Source of the DNA: a virus
Lineage: Duplodnaviria; Heunggongvirae; Uroviricota; Caudoviricetes
Reading direction: 5' to 3' (one strand)
Virus record (IMG/VR): IMGVR_UViG_2541047861_000014
Length of the DNA: 37,035 bases
The first letter of the stretch is position 1; each line of letters opens with the position of its first letter. This document shows positions 8,660 to 20,003 of this stretch, piece by piece. The notes beneath the pieces are model-generated. The model was given only the letters and a program-made list of their open reading frames with translations. It did not search any database and was not told the DNA's origin. The position numbers and the translations under genes are program-made.

Positions 8660-8749
8660 AACGAAATTAAAACCTTTGTACCGATAAGGTACAAGTATCT
8701 TGAAGGTTCATTTCAATCATGTAATATGTATACTGGAGGTACATATTGT
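8660..8749. promoter_or_regulatory. Immunity switch region: operators plus divergent PRM-like and PR-like promoters
   Basis: Perfect palindrome TTGTACC-GATAA-GGTACAA (8676-8694); ATGTA-N9-TACAT (8726-8744); PR candidate TTGAAG (8700-8705) - 16 nt - TAATAT (8722-8727); PRM candidate on minus strand TTGTAC - 17 nt - TTTAAT ending 6 nt before the cI ATG (leaderless-like). Confidence 0.55.
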
Positions 8750-8950
8750 ATGAAAGCGTATTGGGACTCTTTAACCAAAGAACAGCAGGGCGAGTTGGCC
8801 GGAAAAGTTGGCTCAACACCTGGCTACTTACGGCTGGTTTTCAATGGTTATAAAAAAGCCAGTTTTGTGCTGGCGAAAAAACTTGAGCAATGCACGTCAG
8901 GTGCAATTACGAAATCTGACTTAAGACCGGATATCTATCCGAAAGATTAA
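8750..8950 (+). CDS. cro: Cro-like small HTH regulator
   Basis: 66 aa from ATG at 8750 with GGAGG upstream; divergent from cI; the ORF-track start at 8645 would run through the operators. Confidence 0.7.
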   Translation: MKAYWDSLTKEQQGELAGKVGSTPGYLRLVFNGYKKASFVLAKKLEQCTSGAITKSDLRPDIYPKD

Positions 8951-8981
8951 CAGAACACCTTCAATTTTTAACCACAGAACG

Positions 8982-9545
8982 ATGAGGCTAACCGTGGGTA
9001 AGTATCACTGGAAAGTAGAAAAACAGCCTGAGTGGTACGTGAAAGCTGTCAGAAAAACTATCGCAGCGTTGCCGGGTGGTTACGCTGAAGCAGCTGACTG
9101 GCTGGATGTAACAGAGAACGCATTATTTAACCGCCTTCGTGCCGATGGCGATCAGATTTTCCCGCTGGGATGGGCAATGGTTTTACAGCGCGCGGCTGAC
9201 ACTCACTACATTGCGGATGCTGTCGCACAGTCTGCTGGTGGGGTGTTCGTATCGCTTCCTGAAATTGAGGAAGTAGAGAACGCCGATATAAACCAGCGCC
9301 TGCTGGAAGTCATCGAACAGATCGGGAATTACTCAAAGCAGATTCGTTCGGCAATCGAAGATGGGGTCGTGGAGCCACACGAGCAGACAGCAATTAATGA
9401 TGAGTTGTATCTGTCAATTTCGAAGCTCCAAGAGCATGCAGCACTGGTCTACAAAATCTTTTGCGCTCCAGAAAAGAGTGACGCCCGCGAGTGTGCAGCT
9501 CCGGGCGTCGTGGCGTTTTGTGTCTGTGGAGAAACTAACGCATGA
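8982..9545 (+). CDS. Early regulatory protein in the cII position (possibly CII/CP76-like)
   Basis: 187-aa ORF directly after cro; family assignment from memory only, weak RBS. Confidence 0.4.
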   Translation: MRLTVGKYHWKVEKQPEWYVKAVRKTIAALPGGYAEAADWLDVTENALFNRLRADGDQIFPLGWAMVLQRAADTHYIADAVAQSAGGVFVSLPEIEEVENADINQRLLEVIEQIGNYSKQIRSAIEDGVVEPHEQTAINDELYLSISKLQEHAALVYKIFCAPEKSDARECAAPGVVAFCVCGETNA

Positions 9546-10378
9546 ACAGTTTAACGGCAAATAACCGTTTGTCGCAACAGCTGGTGGTCAGTGTCGCTGA
9601 ACACCTGTTGTTACGGCATGAATGCAGATTACCAAATCACCTGGCTGTAAGTAACCACAGAGAACTTTACCTGACTGTGGGGGGCGAGTTGTGCGGGAAC
9701 TTAACCGCTGGTTTCGTGACGGAAGAGGGCTTTATGTCCATGTTATTCGTTGGGAACCAGAAACACAGCGCGTTATCTATCTTCGCAAAGACTACCCGCA
9801 TGAGTGCTTTAGTCCTTTGTGGAAATTCAGGCGTGATTTTGTTGAGTGTGAAGGACCACCAGCACATTGATTCTGCCATTCCGGGACGTTACACTGTTCA
9901 GGCACCTTATAAAGCGGGTGACGGGATTGGCGTCCTGGAAATGTTATCGGCGATATATGACGCGCCAGCGTCTTTTTTATCGTCTGTGTCTGTGCACACC
10001 CAAATTATGGTGGGCTGGACGGGGGCACCGAAAGGTGCGCCGGTTTCCGATAACGCCGGTTACGCCAACCCCGTTCAGTTCACCACCAGCGAAATTGGCG
10101 TTTCCGGTGGTGAAGGTAATTCACTGTTATCGGAGGCTGCCATCATGGCTACTGTCCCAGCCCTCACTCGTCTGAATGATGAAGACTTACATAAACTCAG
10201 TTATGTAACAACTGCACTACGTGCTCTGCGCAAGGTAACTCTTTCGGATCCGCAGGCGCATCAGGTTTTGGTAGAAACCCTTCTTAACTTGCAGGCTGAA
10301 CGTATTCGTCTGGCGGATAAGGCTAATTTTCATATTCACCGTCTCCTGAATATCAGCGGAGGGCATCGTCATGCTTAA
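9542..10378 (+). CDS. Hypothetical early protein (278 aa)
   Basis: ORF coupled by ATGA overlap to the upstream gene; no recognised motif. Confidence 0.5.
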   Translation: MNSLTANNRLSQQLVVSVAEHLLLRHECRLPNHLAVSNHRELYLTVGGELCGNLTAGFVTEEGFMSMLFVGNQKHSALSIFAKTTRMSALVLCGNSGVILLSVKDHQHIDSAIPGRYTVQAPYKAGDGIGVLEMLSAIYDAPASFLSSVSVHTQIMVGWTGAPKGAPVSDNAGYANPVQFTTSEIGVSGGEGNSLLSEAAIMATVPALTRLNDEDLHKLSYVTTALRALRKVTLSDPQAHQVLVETLLNLQAERIRLADKANFHIHRLLNISGGHRHA

Positions 10379-10607
10379 TCCGTTGATCCTCAATATTTGC
10401 CGTTTGCTTCAGCGTAAAAAAACATCAATTCCTACAGTTGGGCAGTGGTACACCACGCCTGCAGGGCATGTTCTACGTGTTAGCCTGGTTGACCGTGAAT
10501 GTCAGAAGGTGATTTGTGAACCGCTGGGCCGTAATTACCGCATCAGTATGCCGCTTATAGCCTTTTGCTCCGGAAAAAACATGAAGCATCTCGGAGGTGC
10601 AGCATGA
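10371..10607 (+). CDS. Hypothetical small protein (78 aa)
   Basis: GGAGGG RBS 8-9 nt upstream; stop overlaps the start of the replication gene (ATGA). Confidence 0.5.
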   Translation: MLNPLILNICRLLQRKKTSIPTVGQWYTTPAGHVLRVSLVDRECQKVICEPLGRNYRISMPLIAFCSGKNMKHLGGAA

Positions 10608-11422
10608 GTATGGAGCTGATGGTTAAAGCGATGAAAATTCGAGTGGGTAATCCATTGCGAAAACTGGTTCTGATCAAGCTGGCTGATAATGCCAGCGATC
10701 AGGGTGAGTGCTGGCCCAGCTACCAGCATATTGCTGACCAGTGCGAGATTAGCAAACGTTCTGTGATGAATCATATTGCGGCCCTTTGTGATTCCGGGCT
10801 GGTAAAAAAAGTCACCCGGAAAGGTGAAAAAGGTAACTCAAGTAATATCTATCTCCTTCATCTTGATGGTGCAGGAGATTCACTAGGGGGTAGTGCAAAT
10901 AATTCACTATCTGGTGCAGCAAATTCACCAGGTAGTGCAGGAGTTGCACCAGGGGGTGGTGCAGGAGATTCACCCAGAACCAGTCACTCTTTTGAACCAG
11001 TCAAAGAACCAGTCAATGAACCAATAGCTGTTGGTGCATCTGCTGATGAGTCTGTGCGAGTTCGTTCAAACCGACCGGAATACTCTCCGGAGTTTGAGCA
11101 GGCATGGCTGGCATACCCCAAACGTGCTGGTGGCAATTCAAAATCTGCAGCCTTCAAAGCCTGGAAAGCCCGTTTGAATGAGGGGGTAAAACCCGAAACC
11201 ATGCTGGAAGGTGTGAAACGCTACGCGGGCTGGGTATCTGCGATGGGTAACAGCGGCACACAATTTGTGAAACAGGCTGTCACGTTCTTTGGTCCGGATC
11301 GTCATTTCGAAGAATCCTGGGAAGTTCCTGCGGTATCTGCAGCCAGACGCGAGGACCCGTACTTCAAAGCCAGTTACGACAACGTGGACTACAGCCAGAT
11401 CCCGGCAGGATTCAGGGGGTAA
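10604..11422 (+). CDS. Phage replication initiation protein (O-like replisome organiser, N-terminal HTH), with internal iteron-like repeats
   Basis: ATG at 10604 with GGAGG at 6 nt; N-terminal HTH (SYQHIADQCEISKRSVMNHIAAL); Gly/Ser/Ala-rich linker encoded by DNA direct repeats; conserved C-terminal region (EFEQAWLAYPKR...). Confidence 0.65.
   Translation: MSMELMVKAMKIRVGNPLRKLVLIKLADNASDQGECWPSYQHIADQCEISKRSVMNHIAALCDSGLVKKVTRKGEKGNSSNIYLLHLDGAGDSLGGSANNSLSGAANSPGSAGVAPGGGAGDSPRTSHSFEPVKEPVNEPIAVGASADESVRVRSNRPEYSPEFEQAWLAYPKRAGGNSKSAAFKAWKARLNEGVKPETMLEGVKRYAGWVSAMGNSGTQFVKQAVTFFGPDRHFEESWEVPAVSAARREDPYFKASYDNVDYSQIPAGFRG
10868..11020. repeat. Iteron-like direct repeats inside the O-like gene (candidate replication origin)
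   Basis: About five imperfect ~21-24 bp repeats (consensus roughly GGTRGTGCAnnAnnTTCACYA), including a perfect 16-bp copy GGTGCAGGAGATTCAC at 10868 and 10958; followed by GAACCAGTCAA repeats at 10994-11017. Confidence 0.55.
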
Positions 11423-11424
11423 TC

Positions 11425-11913
11425 ATGAGTCTTTTGAATGAAGTTCAGAAATTCATTGAAGCCCATCCGGGGTGTACTTCCGGAGACATTGCAGATGCTT
11501 TTGCAGGTTACTCACGGCAGCGCGTTCTGCAGTCAGCAAGCAAGTTACGTCAGAGTGGGCGTGTGGCTCACCGTTGTGAAGGAGATACACGCAGACATTT
11601 CCCGCGCCTGACTGAGAGAGCGCAGGAGCCGGAACCACAACCAGTTCGTGAAACCAGACCTGTGCGCAATTTCTATGTCGGCACTAACGATCCCCGGGTA
11701 ATTTTGTGCCTGACCCGCCAGGCTGAAGAACTGGAGTCCAGGGGCTTATACCGTCGTGCTGCAACCGTGTGGATGGCGGCATTCCGTGAAAGCCACTCCC
11801 AGTCAGAACGAAACAATTTTCTGGCGCGCCGTGAGCGGTGCTTACGGAAAAGCAGCAAGCGCGCTGTATCGGGTGATGAGTGGTATCTGTCAGGGAATTA
11901 CGTGTGGGCTTAA
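11425..11913 (+). CDS. Putative transcriptional regulator (PerC-like C-terminal region)
   Basis: 162 aa; C-terminal LESRGLYRRAATVWMAAFRESHSQSERNNFLARRERCLRK resembles PerC-family activators (from memory). Confidence 0.4.
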   Translation: MSLLNEVQKFIEAHPGCTSGDIADAFAGYSRQRVLQSASKLRQSGRVAHRCEGDTRRHFPRLTERAQEPEPQPVRETRPVRNFYVGTNDPRVILCLTRQAEELESRGLYRRAATVWMAAFRESHSQSERNNFLARRERCLRKSSKRAVSGDEWYLSGNYVWA

Positions 11914-12239
11914 TGACGACGTTAACTCAATGCCAGCAGCAGGTGCTGGATATGCTGATTTCTTATCAGAAAGAACGTGGTTTCCCGCCAACCAATCAGG
12001 AGGTGGCAGCCATGCTGGGATACCGTTCGGTGAATGCAGCGGTGGAGCATCTTCGCGCACTGGAGAAAAAAGGCGTCATCACGATAAAGCGTGGCGTGGC
12101 CCGGGGTATCACGCTTCATACCACAGTGAAGGACGACGACAGCGAGGCAGCCGGGATTATCCGTGCACTGCTTGCCGGTGAGGAAAACGCCAGACTGCGT
12201 GCAGCCCACTGGTTACATGAGAGGGGCCTGAAAGTATGA
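11913..12239 (+). CDS. LexA-N-terminal-like winged-helix DNA-binding protein
   Basis: MTTLTQCQQQVLDMLISYQKERGFPPTNQEVAAMLGYRSVNAAVEHLRALEKKGVI matches the LexA DNA-binding-domain pattern; no peptidase domain; TAATG overlap with upstream gene. Confidence 0.55.
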   Translation: MTTLTQCQQQVLDMLISYQKERGFPPTNQEVAAMLGYRSVNAAVEHLRALEKKGVITIKRGVARGITLHTTVKDDDSEAAGIIRALLAGEENARLRAAHWLHERGLKV

Positions 12240-15833: not shown

Positions 15834-16133
15834 AAAAATTCCTTAATACTGATAACTGGGCGCACTATACACACGTTCCTGAAGAAAGCTATAGTTTTTT
15901 GATGGGGTTGAAGATGGCTGGATGTCTAAAATAAACATTGCTTCATATGTTCAACTATGCGTTAATGATTGCGTCGGTTTGAAGAACAGACGATATACGA
16001 AGTAGTTTACTAAAGCAGTTCTCATTTCAGGTGTTATTCACTTATTCCTTCTTTGAGTCTCTCCAATTAAGTACGAAGTCGTTTCTGTTATACAAGCCAT
16101 TTATGCCGAAAGGCTCAAGTTAAGGAATGTAGA

Positions 16134-16349
16134 ATGTCAAATAAAATGACTGGTTTAGTAAAATGGTTTAACGCTGATAAAGGTTTTGGCTTTATTTCTC
16201 CTGTTGATGGTAGTAAAGATGTGTTTGTGCATTTTTCTGCGATTCAGAATGATAATTTTCGAACCTTGTTTGAAGGTCAAAAGGTTACCTTCTCTGTAGA
16301 GAGTGGTGCTAAAGGTCCTGCAGCAGCAAATGTCATAATTACTGATTAA
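16134..16349 (+). CDS. cspB: Cold-shock protein CspB-like
   Basis: [38 protein letters not shown]...; near-identical to CspB as recalled. Confidence 0.9.
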
Positions 16350-16630
16350 AATTCATAGTTTGTCTGTATACGATAACGAAGAAGGCTGATGCCTGAGTGG
16401 AGATACAGACAGAGTGGTGAATATTGGATCTCTTTAATAAATAGTAAGGAGGTCCAATACATGAAACAATGGCCAGCATATTTGGCAATAACTTAATCAG
16501 GAAAAGTATGCTAACCATTGTGGTGAAGTGCAGGTTTGCTGCATGAATAGTTTTACAGCAGAAGCTAACTGCTGGCATAGCAAAACAAAGTGCGTAAGTG
16601 GATGACTCCCACAAAAAGTACCACAATATT

Positions 16631-19222: not shown

Positions 19223-19582
19223 ATTAATATTAAATCGGATTATTTTTAGCGCTGAATGTGAAATTTAAATAAAAAGGACTCTTCCATGAGTCAAAATCCT
19301 TGAAATCTTAAGGGTAAGATAAAAGGTCATTAGACAGAATGACACGTTTTATTAATAAATAAAGCTATTGTTTCATTCGTGTGTTTTTCTTTACAAAAGT
19401 AATCCTTGCTATGGTTGGTTAATCATGCGTTAATGGTGTTCTGGTTTGTTACAAAATTATCTGAAGCAGTCATTGTTATAATTTTATTATTTGTACCTCT
19501 TGAGATTTCCTTGTTGGTTTTTCTCTCTGATATTTTTTTTCGGACCATTCTGCCCAAGGGCTAACTTCTTCAAAAGGTAATA

Positions 19583-19798
19583 ATGATGTTTAACAAAATG
19601 ACTGGTTTAGTGAAATGGTTTAACCCTGAAAAAGGTTTTGGTTTCATCACGCCGAAAGATGGTAGCAAAGATGTGTTTGTGCATTTCTCAGCTATTCAGA
19701 GCAACGATTTCAAAACGTTAACTGAGAATCAGGAAGTCGAATTTGGTATTGAGAACGGACCTAAAGGCCCTGCAGCTGTTCATGTAGTGGCACTTTGA
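19583..19798 (+). CDS. cspI: Cold-shock protein CspI-like
   Basis: ...[67 protein letters not shown]; matches CspI as recalled; long AT-rich 5' leader typical of csp genes. Confidence 0.88.
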
Positions 19799-20003
19799 GG
19801 TAGAAAATATTACAAACCATATTCACTTTAGATGCCCGTGTTGCCATGGTTCTCAGTATAGAACATCATCTTTTGATGTTTCTGACAGAAATCCTTTCGG
19901 GGCAAAATGTATCTTTTGTAAATCAATGATGATTACATTTGATAATATTTCACAATACTTAAATGTTAGCCATCTGTCGTTAGATTTAAGAAAGTGAAAA
20001 TGA

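Follow-up and report, generated by a model that had tools for sequence, protein, structure and literature searches.

A composite "Ash" reading frame in the early operon of an SfV/2H10-type lambdoid phage, with an RNA cassette of probable P4-type function

The window analysed here is the whole of IMG/VR virus record IMGVR_UViG_2541047861_000014 (37,035 nt), and the region in question is a block at 8982-10607 between a cro-like gene and a replication gene. Three open reading frames (ORFs) of 187, 278 and 78 amino acids (aa) are present on its plus strand, as the original prediction had it: ORF1 (8982-9545), ORF2 (9542-10378) and ORF3 (10371-10607). ORF2, however, is a composite and not a simple protein gene, and the Ash "domain" annotated in it is an RNA cassette. 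At least four protein-coding frames in the block are under selection (ymfL, a DUF4222 gene, the 77-aa 3' part of ORF2, and ORF3), and it also holds a long frame that is open but unconstrained, two structured RNAs, their target sites and a putative internal promoter. The reading as three uncharacterised protein genes missed a conserved out-of-frame 59-aa gene (9691-9870) and two RNA genes inside ORF2. The block is probably part of the early rightward operon in a lambdoid phage of the SfV/2H10 type and has five elements: ymfL, the DUF4222 gene, a P4-type RNA control cassette, a 77-aa gene in the position of P4 kil, and ORF3. All of the component parts belong to known families. New here are the decomposition of ORF2, evidence for an evolution of the Ash "domain" as RNA, an eta-like frame coupled to a CII-like gene, and the breadth of specificity types.

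The Ash block of ORF2 evolves as RNA

For the selection analysis, 80 related viral loci were reduced to 61 distinct aligned haplotypes, and substitutions were counted per frame. The 278-codon frame of ORF2 (9542-10378, plus strand), the ATG of which overlaps the ymfL stop codon as ATGA, is open in all 80 loci and in all haplotypes, and so the ORFs are not a product of chance. Constraint at the protein level is limited to codons 201-278, the last 77 codons, where the ratio of non-synonymous to synonymous changes (pN/pS) is 0.08-0.13. Codons 1-200 are unconstrained as protein: the spacer at 9546-9690 has one synonymous and 17 non-synonymous variable sites in the ORF2 frame, the ORF2-frame pN/pS is 1.64 in 9692-9865, and codons 127-200 fall into two allele classes with a between-class pN/pS of 1.9.

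ORF2 residues 117-210 (nt 9890-10171) match Pfam Phage_ASH (PF10554; 62.9 bits, cut-off 26), and the span of this match coincides with the isrK and C4 RNAs described below. Variable sites in the Ash block have no third-position bias (27, 23 and 19 over the codon positions), and purifying selection on amino acids was not found there. Where ORF2 alleles differ in amino acids, the changes fall exactly on the compensating RNA boxes and stem pairs.

Annotators disagree on this frame. In SfV the 278-aa ORF carries the label "immunity region", RAST and PGAP restrict their call to 9833-10378, the 278-aa product is named "ash family protein" in hundreds of contigs at NCBI, and RAST gives "putative antirepressor". 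The Pfam match, these names and the frame that is always open speak for ORF2 as an ordinary 278-aa Ash family regulatory or antirepressor protein, with the RNA matches incidental. This is quite improbable, given the position of the Pfam match on the two RNAs, the lack of purifying selection on protein in codons 1-200, the compensatory nature of the allelic differences and the strong covariation of the RNA structure. In addition, the P4 member of Phage_ASH is the old "cI ORF" covering the CI RNA, whereas P4 epsilon is in PF25738. An AlphaFold2 (AF2) model of the 278-aa product, from a shallow alignment, has a mean pLDDT of 32.5 (below 50 in residues 1-214) and is unusable for a fold search.

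The equation of Ash with the P4 epsilon antirepressor (bioRxiv 10.1101/2021.03.30.437493) was considered and rejected on the same family assignments. In the P4 locus (L174:7888-8584) epsilon is the helper derepression protein and matches PF25738, not Phage_ASH; the preprint, on P4-like satellites, took PF10554 as an epsilon marker. An alternative ORF of 102 codons (9867-10175) was also rejected, as it carries stop codons in most haplotypes.

Composites like ORF2 are found in mEp460 (gp41, L091:2077-3228) and Citrobacter braakii (L004:4058-5209), where ORFs of 383 aa are annotated as antirepressor or transcriptional regulator. In mEp460, residues 1-126 are nearly identical to those of ORF2 and are followed by the isrK and C4 RNAs and then by a Rha-domain protein. 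The Rha-domain protein of both composites probably starts at a conserved ATG (MAT...). The C. braakii locus carries an out-of-frame DUF4222 ORF too (L004:4207-4386).

Structure and pairing of the RNA cassette

Both isrK and C4 survive a scan of the whole window with Rfam at gathering thresholds. The isrK or P4 SeqA-like leader RNA (RF01394) lies at 9902-9978 on the plus strand (55.4 bits, gathering score 50, full length, E 2.2e-9 over the whole window), and the C4 or P4 CI-like antisense RNA (RF01695) at 10003-10090 on the same strand (82.8 bits, gathering score 45, full length, E 5e-15 over the whole window). A terminator hairpin followed by U6 forms the 3' end of the leader (9959-9972), and a terminator-like site was found there in a scan. 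The pair is also detected in mEp460, C. braakii and P4; in P4 the C4 match is the CI RNA and the isrK match is the PLE leader with seqA.

The C4-like RNA has a minimum free energy of -47.8 kcal/mol (z -5.1). When the Rfam structure was placed on 23 diverse cassettes, 99.5% of cells were paired and compensatory double changes were seen in 15 of the 27 pairs. The real covariation value is reached by 0 of 500 shuffles, and slid controls give 32-49%.

The loop box a' of C4 (CCGATAAC, 10047-10054) is complementary to one site upstream, a1 (GTTATCGG, 9943-9950, in the isrK leader), and to one downstream, a2 (GTTATCGGA, 10126-10134). Likewise, the single-stranded box b' (CGCCAA, 10063-10068) is complementary to TTGGCG in b1 (9927-9932, in the leader) and b2 (10095-10100). 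All of these boxes are on the plus strand, and b2 and a2 lie in a downstream target region (10095-10136, plus strand) analogous to P4 seqC. The a2 box overlaps the Shine-Dalgarno sequence GGAGG (10132-10136), which is 8 nt before ATG 10145.

Three-way covariation of a', a1 and a2 is seen in five lineages: two alleles of this phage group, C. braakii, mEp460 and P4 (as seqB, seqA and seqC). The boxes differ between these lineages, yet match within each cassette. The two alleles of the present group have the loops CCGATAAC (class A) and CCTTGATCA (class B), and one stem pair switches from C:G to U:A between them. With the conserved core GAGGCTGCCATCATGGCTAC, 120 further viral loci were fetched. 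A set of 72 unique cassettes falls into 24 loop types, across which the loop and both target boxes likewise covary. Mean complementarity within cassettes is 9.0 nt for a2 and 7.2 nt for a1, compared with 2.9 and 4.0 nt across types.

The long frame is maintained as well. In 96% of related cassettes (22 of the 24 loop types), the frame of the cargo ATG runs without a stop codon for at least 100 codons upstream, against 4% and 0% for the other frames. C4 has an invariant ATG in its 5' part, and in 71 of the 72 cassettes this ATG is in frame with the cargo ATG, with no stop codon between them.

A promoter-like element inside ORF2 (9867-9895, plus strand) consists of TTGATT (9867-9872), 17 nt and TACACT (9890-9895), and is a candidate analogue of the P4 promoter PLE; it would place a transcript start near 9902. 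Diverged cassettes have both hexamers at equal spacing, 6-7 nt before the 5' end of isrK, some in a closer form such as TTGACT-N17-TATATT. The candidate aligns with TATAGT in P4.

A P4-type mechanism and its alternatives

In P4, the order is PLE, seqA, CI RNA with seqB, seqC, and then kil, which lies within eta; the replication gene alpha follows downstream. A Rho-dependent terminator further downstream and processing of the RNA by RNase P and PNPase also characterise the P4-type cassette. As summarised in PMC10111431, the long frame of eta is coupled to the upstream gene and has a constitutive promoter inside it, and the transcript from this promoter is terminated through pairing of CI with seqA. 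Kil is described there as a truncated form of Eta, and translation of eta from upstream transcripts as preventing termination. The CI/seqA/seqC mechanism is also summarised in PMC4825925.

The present cassette resembles that of P4 in several respects. Both Rfam families occur in equal order, and the RNA loop has a complementary site on either side of it, of which the downstream one abuts the shared GAGGCTGCCATCATGGCTAC core and overlaps the ribosome-binding site of the first translated gene. The long frame is in register with the short gene and begins at the stop codon of the upstream gene (PMC10111431). It is matched to eta because it is unconstrained as protein yet kept open and coupled to ymfL by ATGA. 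Replication genes lie downstream in both, and the promoter-like element would correspond to the internal promoter of P4 (PMC10111431). The differences are that the present element is a lambdoid phage with a CI/Cro switch and not a satellite, that the upstream coupled gene is the CII-like ymfL and not an alpA homologue, that a DUF4222 gene in a different register lies within the span of the long frame, and that the cargo is an unrelated 77-aa protein instead of Kil. The specificity boxes differ as well.

Given the family assignments, RNA structure, complementarity and covariation, selection patterns and maintained open frame established here, a mechanism can be proposed, for which homology with P4 supplies the activity of the promoter, the processing of the RNA, the termination step and the influence of translation. 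As part of the explanation as a whole, it is regarded as rather likely. In the prophage, the putative internal promoter (~9867-9895) would yield a short isrK/SeqA-like leader and a processed, stable C4/CI-like RNA. The a' and b' boxes of this RNA would pair with the a1/b1 and a2/b2 sites, and pairing at a2 would occlude the Shine-Dalgarno sequence of ATG 10145. The transcript, left untranslated, would be terminated, so that the 77-aa gene, ORF3 and the replication gene would be off. In lytic growth, transcripts would come from the upstream early promoter, and ribosomes that finish ymfL would restart at the ATGA and read the 278-codon frame to its end, across the RNA cassette. Pairing and termination would then be prevented, and transcription would reach the replication genes.

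Several results weigh against this explanation. The candidate promoter matches the consensus at 8 of 12 positions, which is below the threshold of a generic scan, and the isrK-like leader alone folds no better than shuffled sequence (z -0.87). For the ymfL element, a pairwise BLASTP comparison of YmfL with CII of phage 186 gives no similarity (E 14), so that YmfL is a distant, profile-level member of the CII family, and a search near 8950-9060 for a CII-type inverted repeat or a leftward establishment promoter found none comparable to that of 186, which carries ATGTTTG-N13-CAAACAT at the start of cII. Finally, in the homologous Gifsy-1 locus IsrK activates translation in trans (PMC4825925), and therefore the direction of control could differ in the present phage.

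The isrK-orf45-anrP locus of Gifsy-1 (Salmonella) is like the present one in its isrK-family leader with a terminator and in a downstream frame whose nucleotide sequence is conserved while its amino acids vary. It yields a stable RNA of ~80 nt from that frame and makes translation of the cargo depend on the upstream frame, as the present cassette would (PMC4825925). If the present cassette worked in the same mode, the IsrK-like RNA would act in trans to open the ribosome-binding site of the orf45-like frame (ATG 10007) and activate the cargo, as an induction switch and not as immunity. The mechanism is described, and orf45 has the same pattern of conservation (PMC4825925). In the present cassette, isrK scores above its gathering threshold and ends in a terminator, and the in-frame ATG in the 5' part of C4 is invariant, as noted above. 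The close relatives mEp460 and C. braakii carry AnrP-like Rha cargo. However, the Gifsy-1 cargo is the Rha-type antirepressor AnrP, reached through an AUGA, whereas here the cargo is a 77-aa protein that is not of antirepressor type and is fused in frame to the orf45-like frame without AUGA coupling. The Gifsy-1 locus adjoins antQ, whereas the present one is upstream of replication genes in the fashion of P4, and the pairing of a' with a2 over the Shine-Dalgarno sequence points to the C4-like RNA as a repressor. Control in the Gifsy-1 mode is thus considered unlikely, although it and the P4-type model are not mutually exclusive.

The c4 RNA of P1 and P7, in the immI operon (c4 RNA, icd, ant), is a further parallel. 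Its a' and b' boxes have two sets of partners, a1/b1 and a2/b2, and the downstream set covers the ribosome-binding site of a small first gene, as in the present cassette. The present cassette differs in having no Ant-type antirepressor, in its long upstream frame and in its location inside the pR operon.

The middle region could also be a decaying mosaic remnant of e14-like, P4-like and Rha-type recombination that is now functionless. The unconstrained spacer (9546-9690), the low identity of the N-terminal 99 residues of ORF2 to YmfM of e14 (32%) and the absence of the Rha domain of relatives are compatible with decay. The RNA structure and both target sites, however, are intact and covary between two alleles whose surroundings are almost the same, no haplotype breaks the long frame, and purifying selection acts on each of the DUF4222 gene, the 77-aa gene and ORF3. 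A functionless remnant is accordingly very improbable, the least so favoured of the readings considered.

The P4-type explanation may extend beyond this phage. A large group among the lambdoid prophages of the SfV/2H10 type in E. coli, Shigella and Salmonella could have a second, RNA-based and CI-independent layer of immunity that gates the replication genes, with 24 or more mutually specific variants. The "Ash family protein" ORF would then be no protein domain, and its frame would stay open to let ribosomes arriving from the CII-like gene overcome the RNA block. This broader proposal is put at slightly less than an even chance.

A DUF4222 gene in another frame of ORF2

A DUF4222 gene of the RgdR family (9691-9870, plus strand, 59 aa) overlaps ORF2 in the -1 frame and begins with a GTG after a G-rich Shine-Dalgarno sequence. 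Its product matches PF13973 (E 1.1e-13) and, over the full length, phrog_1343, and PGAP annotates the 59-aa gene at the same position. In 9691-9870, it is the DUF4222 frame and not the ORF2 frame that is under purifying selection (pN/pS 0.14 vs 1.64, 61 haplotypes). Homologues of 59-70 aa are called independently in Escherichia, Salmonella, Klebsiella, Kluyvera, Kosakonia and Citrobacter. They have start signals of their own: AAGGAG with TTG, or ATG, starts are seen in e14 and a Citrobacter prophage (L008). Programmed slippage of ribosomes by -1 at the G-run 9679-9685, out of ORF2 and into the DUF4222 frame, was rejected, as the homologues have their own Shine-Dalgarno sequence and start without a slippery site.

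The one DUF4222 protein studied is RgdR, for which LEE1 activation, repression of motility and non-specific DNA binding are reported, with an RGD motif described as important for activity (PMC3378721). RgdR (ECs1581) is encoded in prophage CP-933C of enterohaemorrhagic E. coli (EHEC). It shares with the present protein the DUF4222 domain (hhalign probability 97%), prophage carriage and a position upstream of replication genes, its gene standing directly before the primase gene. However, it is 99 aa long compared with 59 aa, and the RGD motif is absent from the present protein, which has FRDGRG.

DUF4222 genes lie directly upstream of, and overlap, a replication initiator or primase gene in e14 (L003), the Citrobacter prophage (L008:3159-3353) and EHEC Sp7/CP-933C (L175:3720-4019, RgdR). 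The isrK/C4 cassette is absent from these three loci. In e14, ymfM (L003:4823-5181; NC_000913.3 1203822-1204180) overlaps an unannotated 59-aa DUF4222 ORF (L003:5002-5181) with a TTG start after AAGGAG (Pfam E 9e-19). Among 33 e14-type haplotypes, the 5' part of ymfM outside the overlap has 13 variable sites, 12 of them synonymous in the ymfM frame; in the overlap, seven sites are synonymous in the DUF4222 frame and two in the ymfM frame. The published ymfM clone includes DUF4222 codons 1-53 with their own start signals, so that filamentation could be due to either the ymfM or the DUF4222 product.

ORF1 is ymfL, a distant member of the CII family

The original prediction assigned no motif to any of the three products, yet those of ORF1 and ORF2 both match Pfam families above curated cut-offs. 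ORF1 contains ymfL (8994-9545, plus strand, 183 aa), a putative regulator of the 186-CII family. Its product matches PF06892 (Phage_CP76) over profile positions 5-141 of 146 (53.2 bits, cut-off 26, E 4e-14), NCBIfam NF041471 (YmfL; 168 bits, cut-off 90) and phrog_101 (CII-like activator), and is 88% identical to YmfL of the K-12 prophage e14. The gene is under strong purifying selection (pN/pS 0.14, 61 haplotypes) and sits directly after the cro-type gene in the early rightward operon.

The true start is probably GTG 8994, which is 12 nt past ATG 8982 and shortens the product from 187 to 183 aa. This is suggested by a GAGG Shine-Dalgarno sequence 6 nt upstream (8984-8987), by a stop codon between the equivalents of the ATG and the GTG in the C. 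braakii homologue, and by the use of GTG in the PGAP and K-12 annotations.

PF06892 matches both 186 CII and YmfL, and both genes are directly 3' of a cro/apl-type gene and followed by small host-directed genes. The two differ in that there is no pairwise similarity between the proteins and that neither an ATGTTTG-type inverted repeat nor a pE-like promoter was found at the 5' end of ymfL. Behind cII, 186 carries fil (a cell-division inhibitor) and dhr, and the gene after ymfL in e14 is ymfM, whose product is reported to be the division inhibitor SfiC (bioRxiv 10.1101/2020.11.19.390815). Gene order is thus similar in the two, with a division inhibitor after the CII-type gene in each. YmfL is the likely lysogeny-establishment factor. 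The sole functional result for YmfL is that its over-expression does not lead to filamentation (bioRxiv 10.1101/2020.11.19.390815). A 7-mer direct repeat, ACAGAAC (8950 and 8974), was rejected as a candidate CII binding site, as its frequency is that expected by chance and it is absent where the cro gene differs.

The earlier expectation of a lysis-lysogeny regulator with accessory functions holds in outline, the regulator being of the 186-CII family and the middle consisting of an immunity-type RNA cassette and a kil-position gene. Homology to CII, Ner or replication proteins, which might have accounted for the whole block, was found for ORF1 only.

The 77-aa cargo gene and ORF3

The short gene nested in the ORF2 frame (10145-10378, plus strand) encodes 77 aa, occupies the position of kil in P4, and has GGAGG 8 nt upstream of its ATG; this is the constrained part of ORF2 (pN/pS 0.08-0.13). 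A further in-frame ATG at 10007 (plus strand) gives 123 codons and corresponds to orf45 of Gifsy-1. The product belongs to phrog_4908, a profile of 123 residues that matches from ATG 10007, and has no Pfam match. It is predicted with low confidence to be helical, as AF2 places helices at ORF2 residues 213-275 with a pLDDT of only 50-66. Homology with P4 Kil was not found: the two align only in the first residues (MAT...) and in the RNA-encoded part. Among 119 related cassettes, the cargo is Rha-type in ~60, of the 77-aa type in 21, of a 120-aa type in 21, and of a 65-aa Kil type in 14, 11 of which are P4 Kil itself. The Rha-type cargo (PF09669) is present in mEp460 and C. braakii, not in the present phage.

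ORF3 (10371-10607, plus strand) is a 78-aa orphan of phrog_1153 that overlaps the start of the replication gene by ATGA. It is moderately constrained (pN/pS 0.32), belongs to a very small enterobacterial family, and is always immediately before an HTH_36/DnaD-type replication gene in the loci compared. An N-terminal helix and an SH3-like barrel are predicted, with only generic fold matches. ORF3 is, on balance, best regarded as a small accessory protein translationally coupled to the replication gene. A distant relationship with DUF4222, suggested by eye from a W..G..V.V...E.Q.VI likeness, was rejected (hhalign P 0.19, probability 0.3%), as was a wider ORF3 family, since a profile search of 1.84 billion representatives gave only 25 matches, some of them spurious repeats. 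A PDB sequence search with all four proteins gave no match below E 0.2.

Borders, distribution and neighbouring features

On the left, the block is bordered by the cro-like gene ymfT (8750-8950, plus strand), with a YdaS-type helix-turn-helix (HTH), weak matches to Pfam YdaS_toxin and HTH_3, a match to phrog_35 (transcriptional repressor) and the name ymfT from PGAP. On the right is an HTH_36/DnaD-like replication initiator gene (10604-11422, plus strand; Pfam HTH_36 and DnaD_N, phrog_270). The three ORFs had been described as coupled by ATGA overlaps throughout. These are found at two junctions only, ORF1/ORF2 (9542-9545) and ORF3/replication gene (10604-10607), whereas ORF2 and ORF3 share an 8-nt overlap, ATGCTTAA (10371-10378).

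A 2-kb region containing the block matches Escherichia phage 2H10 at 100% identity, Shigella phage SfV (orf36, orf37 and orf38) at 96.7% and a group of Stx2c-converting phages at ~94-95%. Parts of the 2-kb block are found in 2998 of 5426 complete E. coli genomes.

A divergent CI-like repressor gene of YmfK type with an S24 peptidase is at 7985-8659 (minus strand). Peptidase_S24 is its sole Pfam match, and an HTH is not recognised in Pfam. The intergenic region between repressor and cro (8676-8753) has two operator-like palindromes, TTGTACC-N5-GGTACAA (8676-8694) and a 14-nt inverted repeat (8717-8753). The replication initiator gene contains iteron-like direct repeats at 10869-10973 and 10976-11015, with units of the GTGCAGGAGATTCAC type and three copies of AGAACCAGTCA. 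These repeats coincide with a low-complexity region of the protein made up of Gly, Ser and Ala, and are a possible origin. A PerC-family gene (11425-11913) in the early operon is followed by a short ORF (11913-12239, ~108 aa) that PGAP labels "LexA repressor" and that is far below the length of full LexA. The Rfam cspA thermoregulator has two full-length matches at 15973-16412 and 19428-19844 (160 and 105 bits), which would imply two cold-shock-protein genes with their 5' untranslated regions in the later part of the sequence.

Significance

These results correct the reading of a very common prophage region. The annotated "Ash" protein of 278 or 181 aa, or the "antirepressor" of 383 aa in relatives, lumps together an RNA switch, a small hidden gene and a genuine short gene. 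YmfL emerges as a candidate lysogeny-establishment factor. For such lambdoid phages, including Stx2c-converting and serotype-converting ones, the findings suggest control of replication-gene expression at the RNA level on top of CI/Cro, and the many specificity types could set cross-immunity and interactions with P4-like satellites. If the proposed RNA immunity layer is real, Pfam Phage_ASH and thousands of "ash family protein" and "antirepressor" annotations would describe translated RNA genes.

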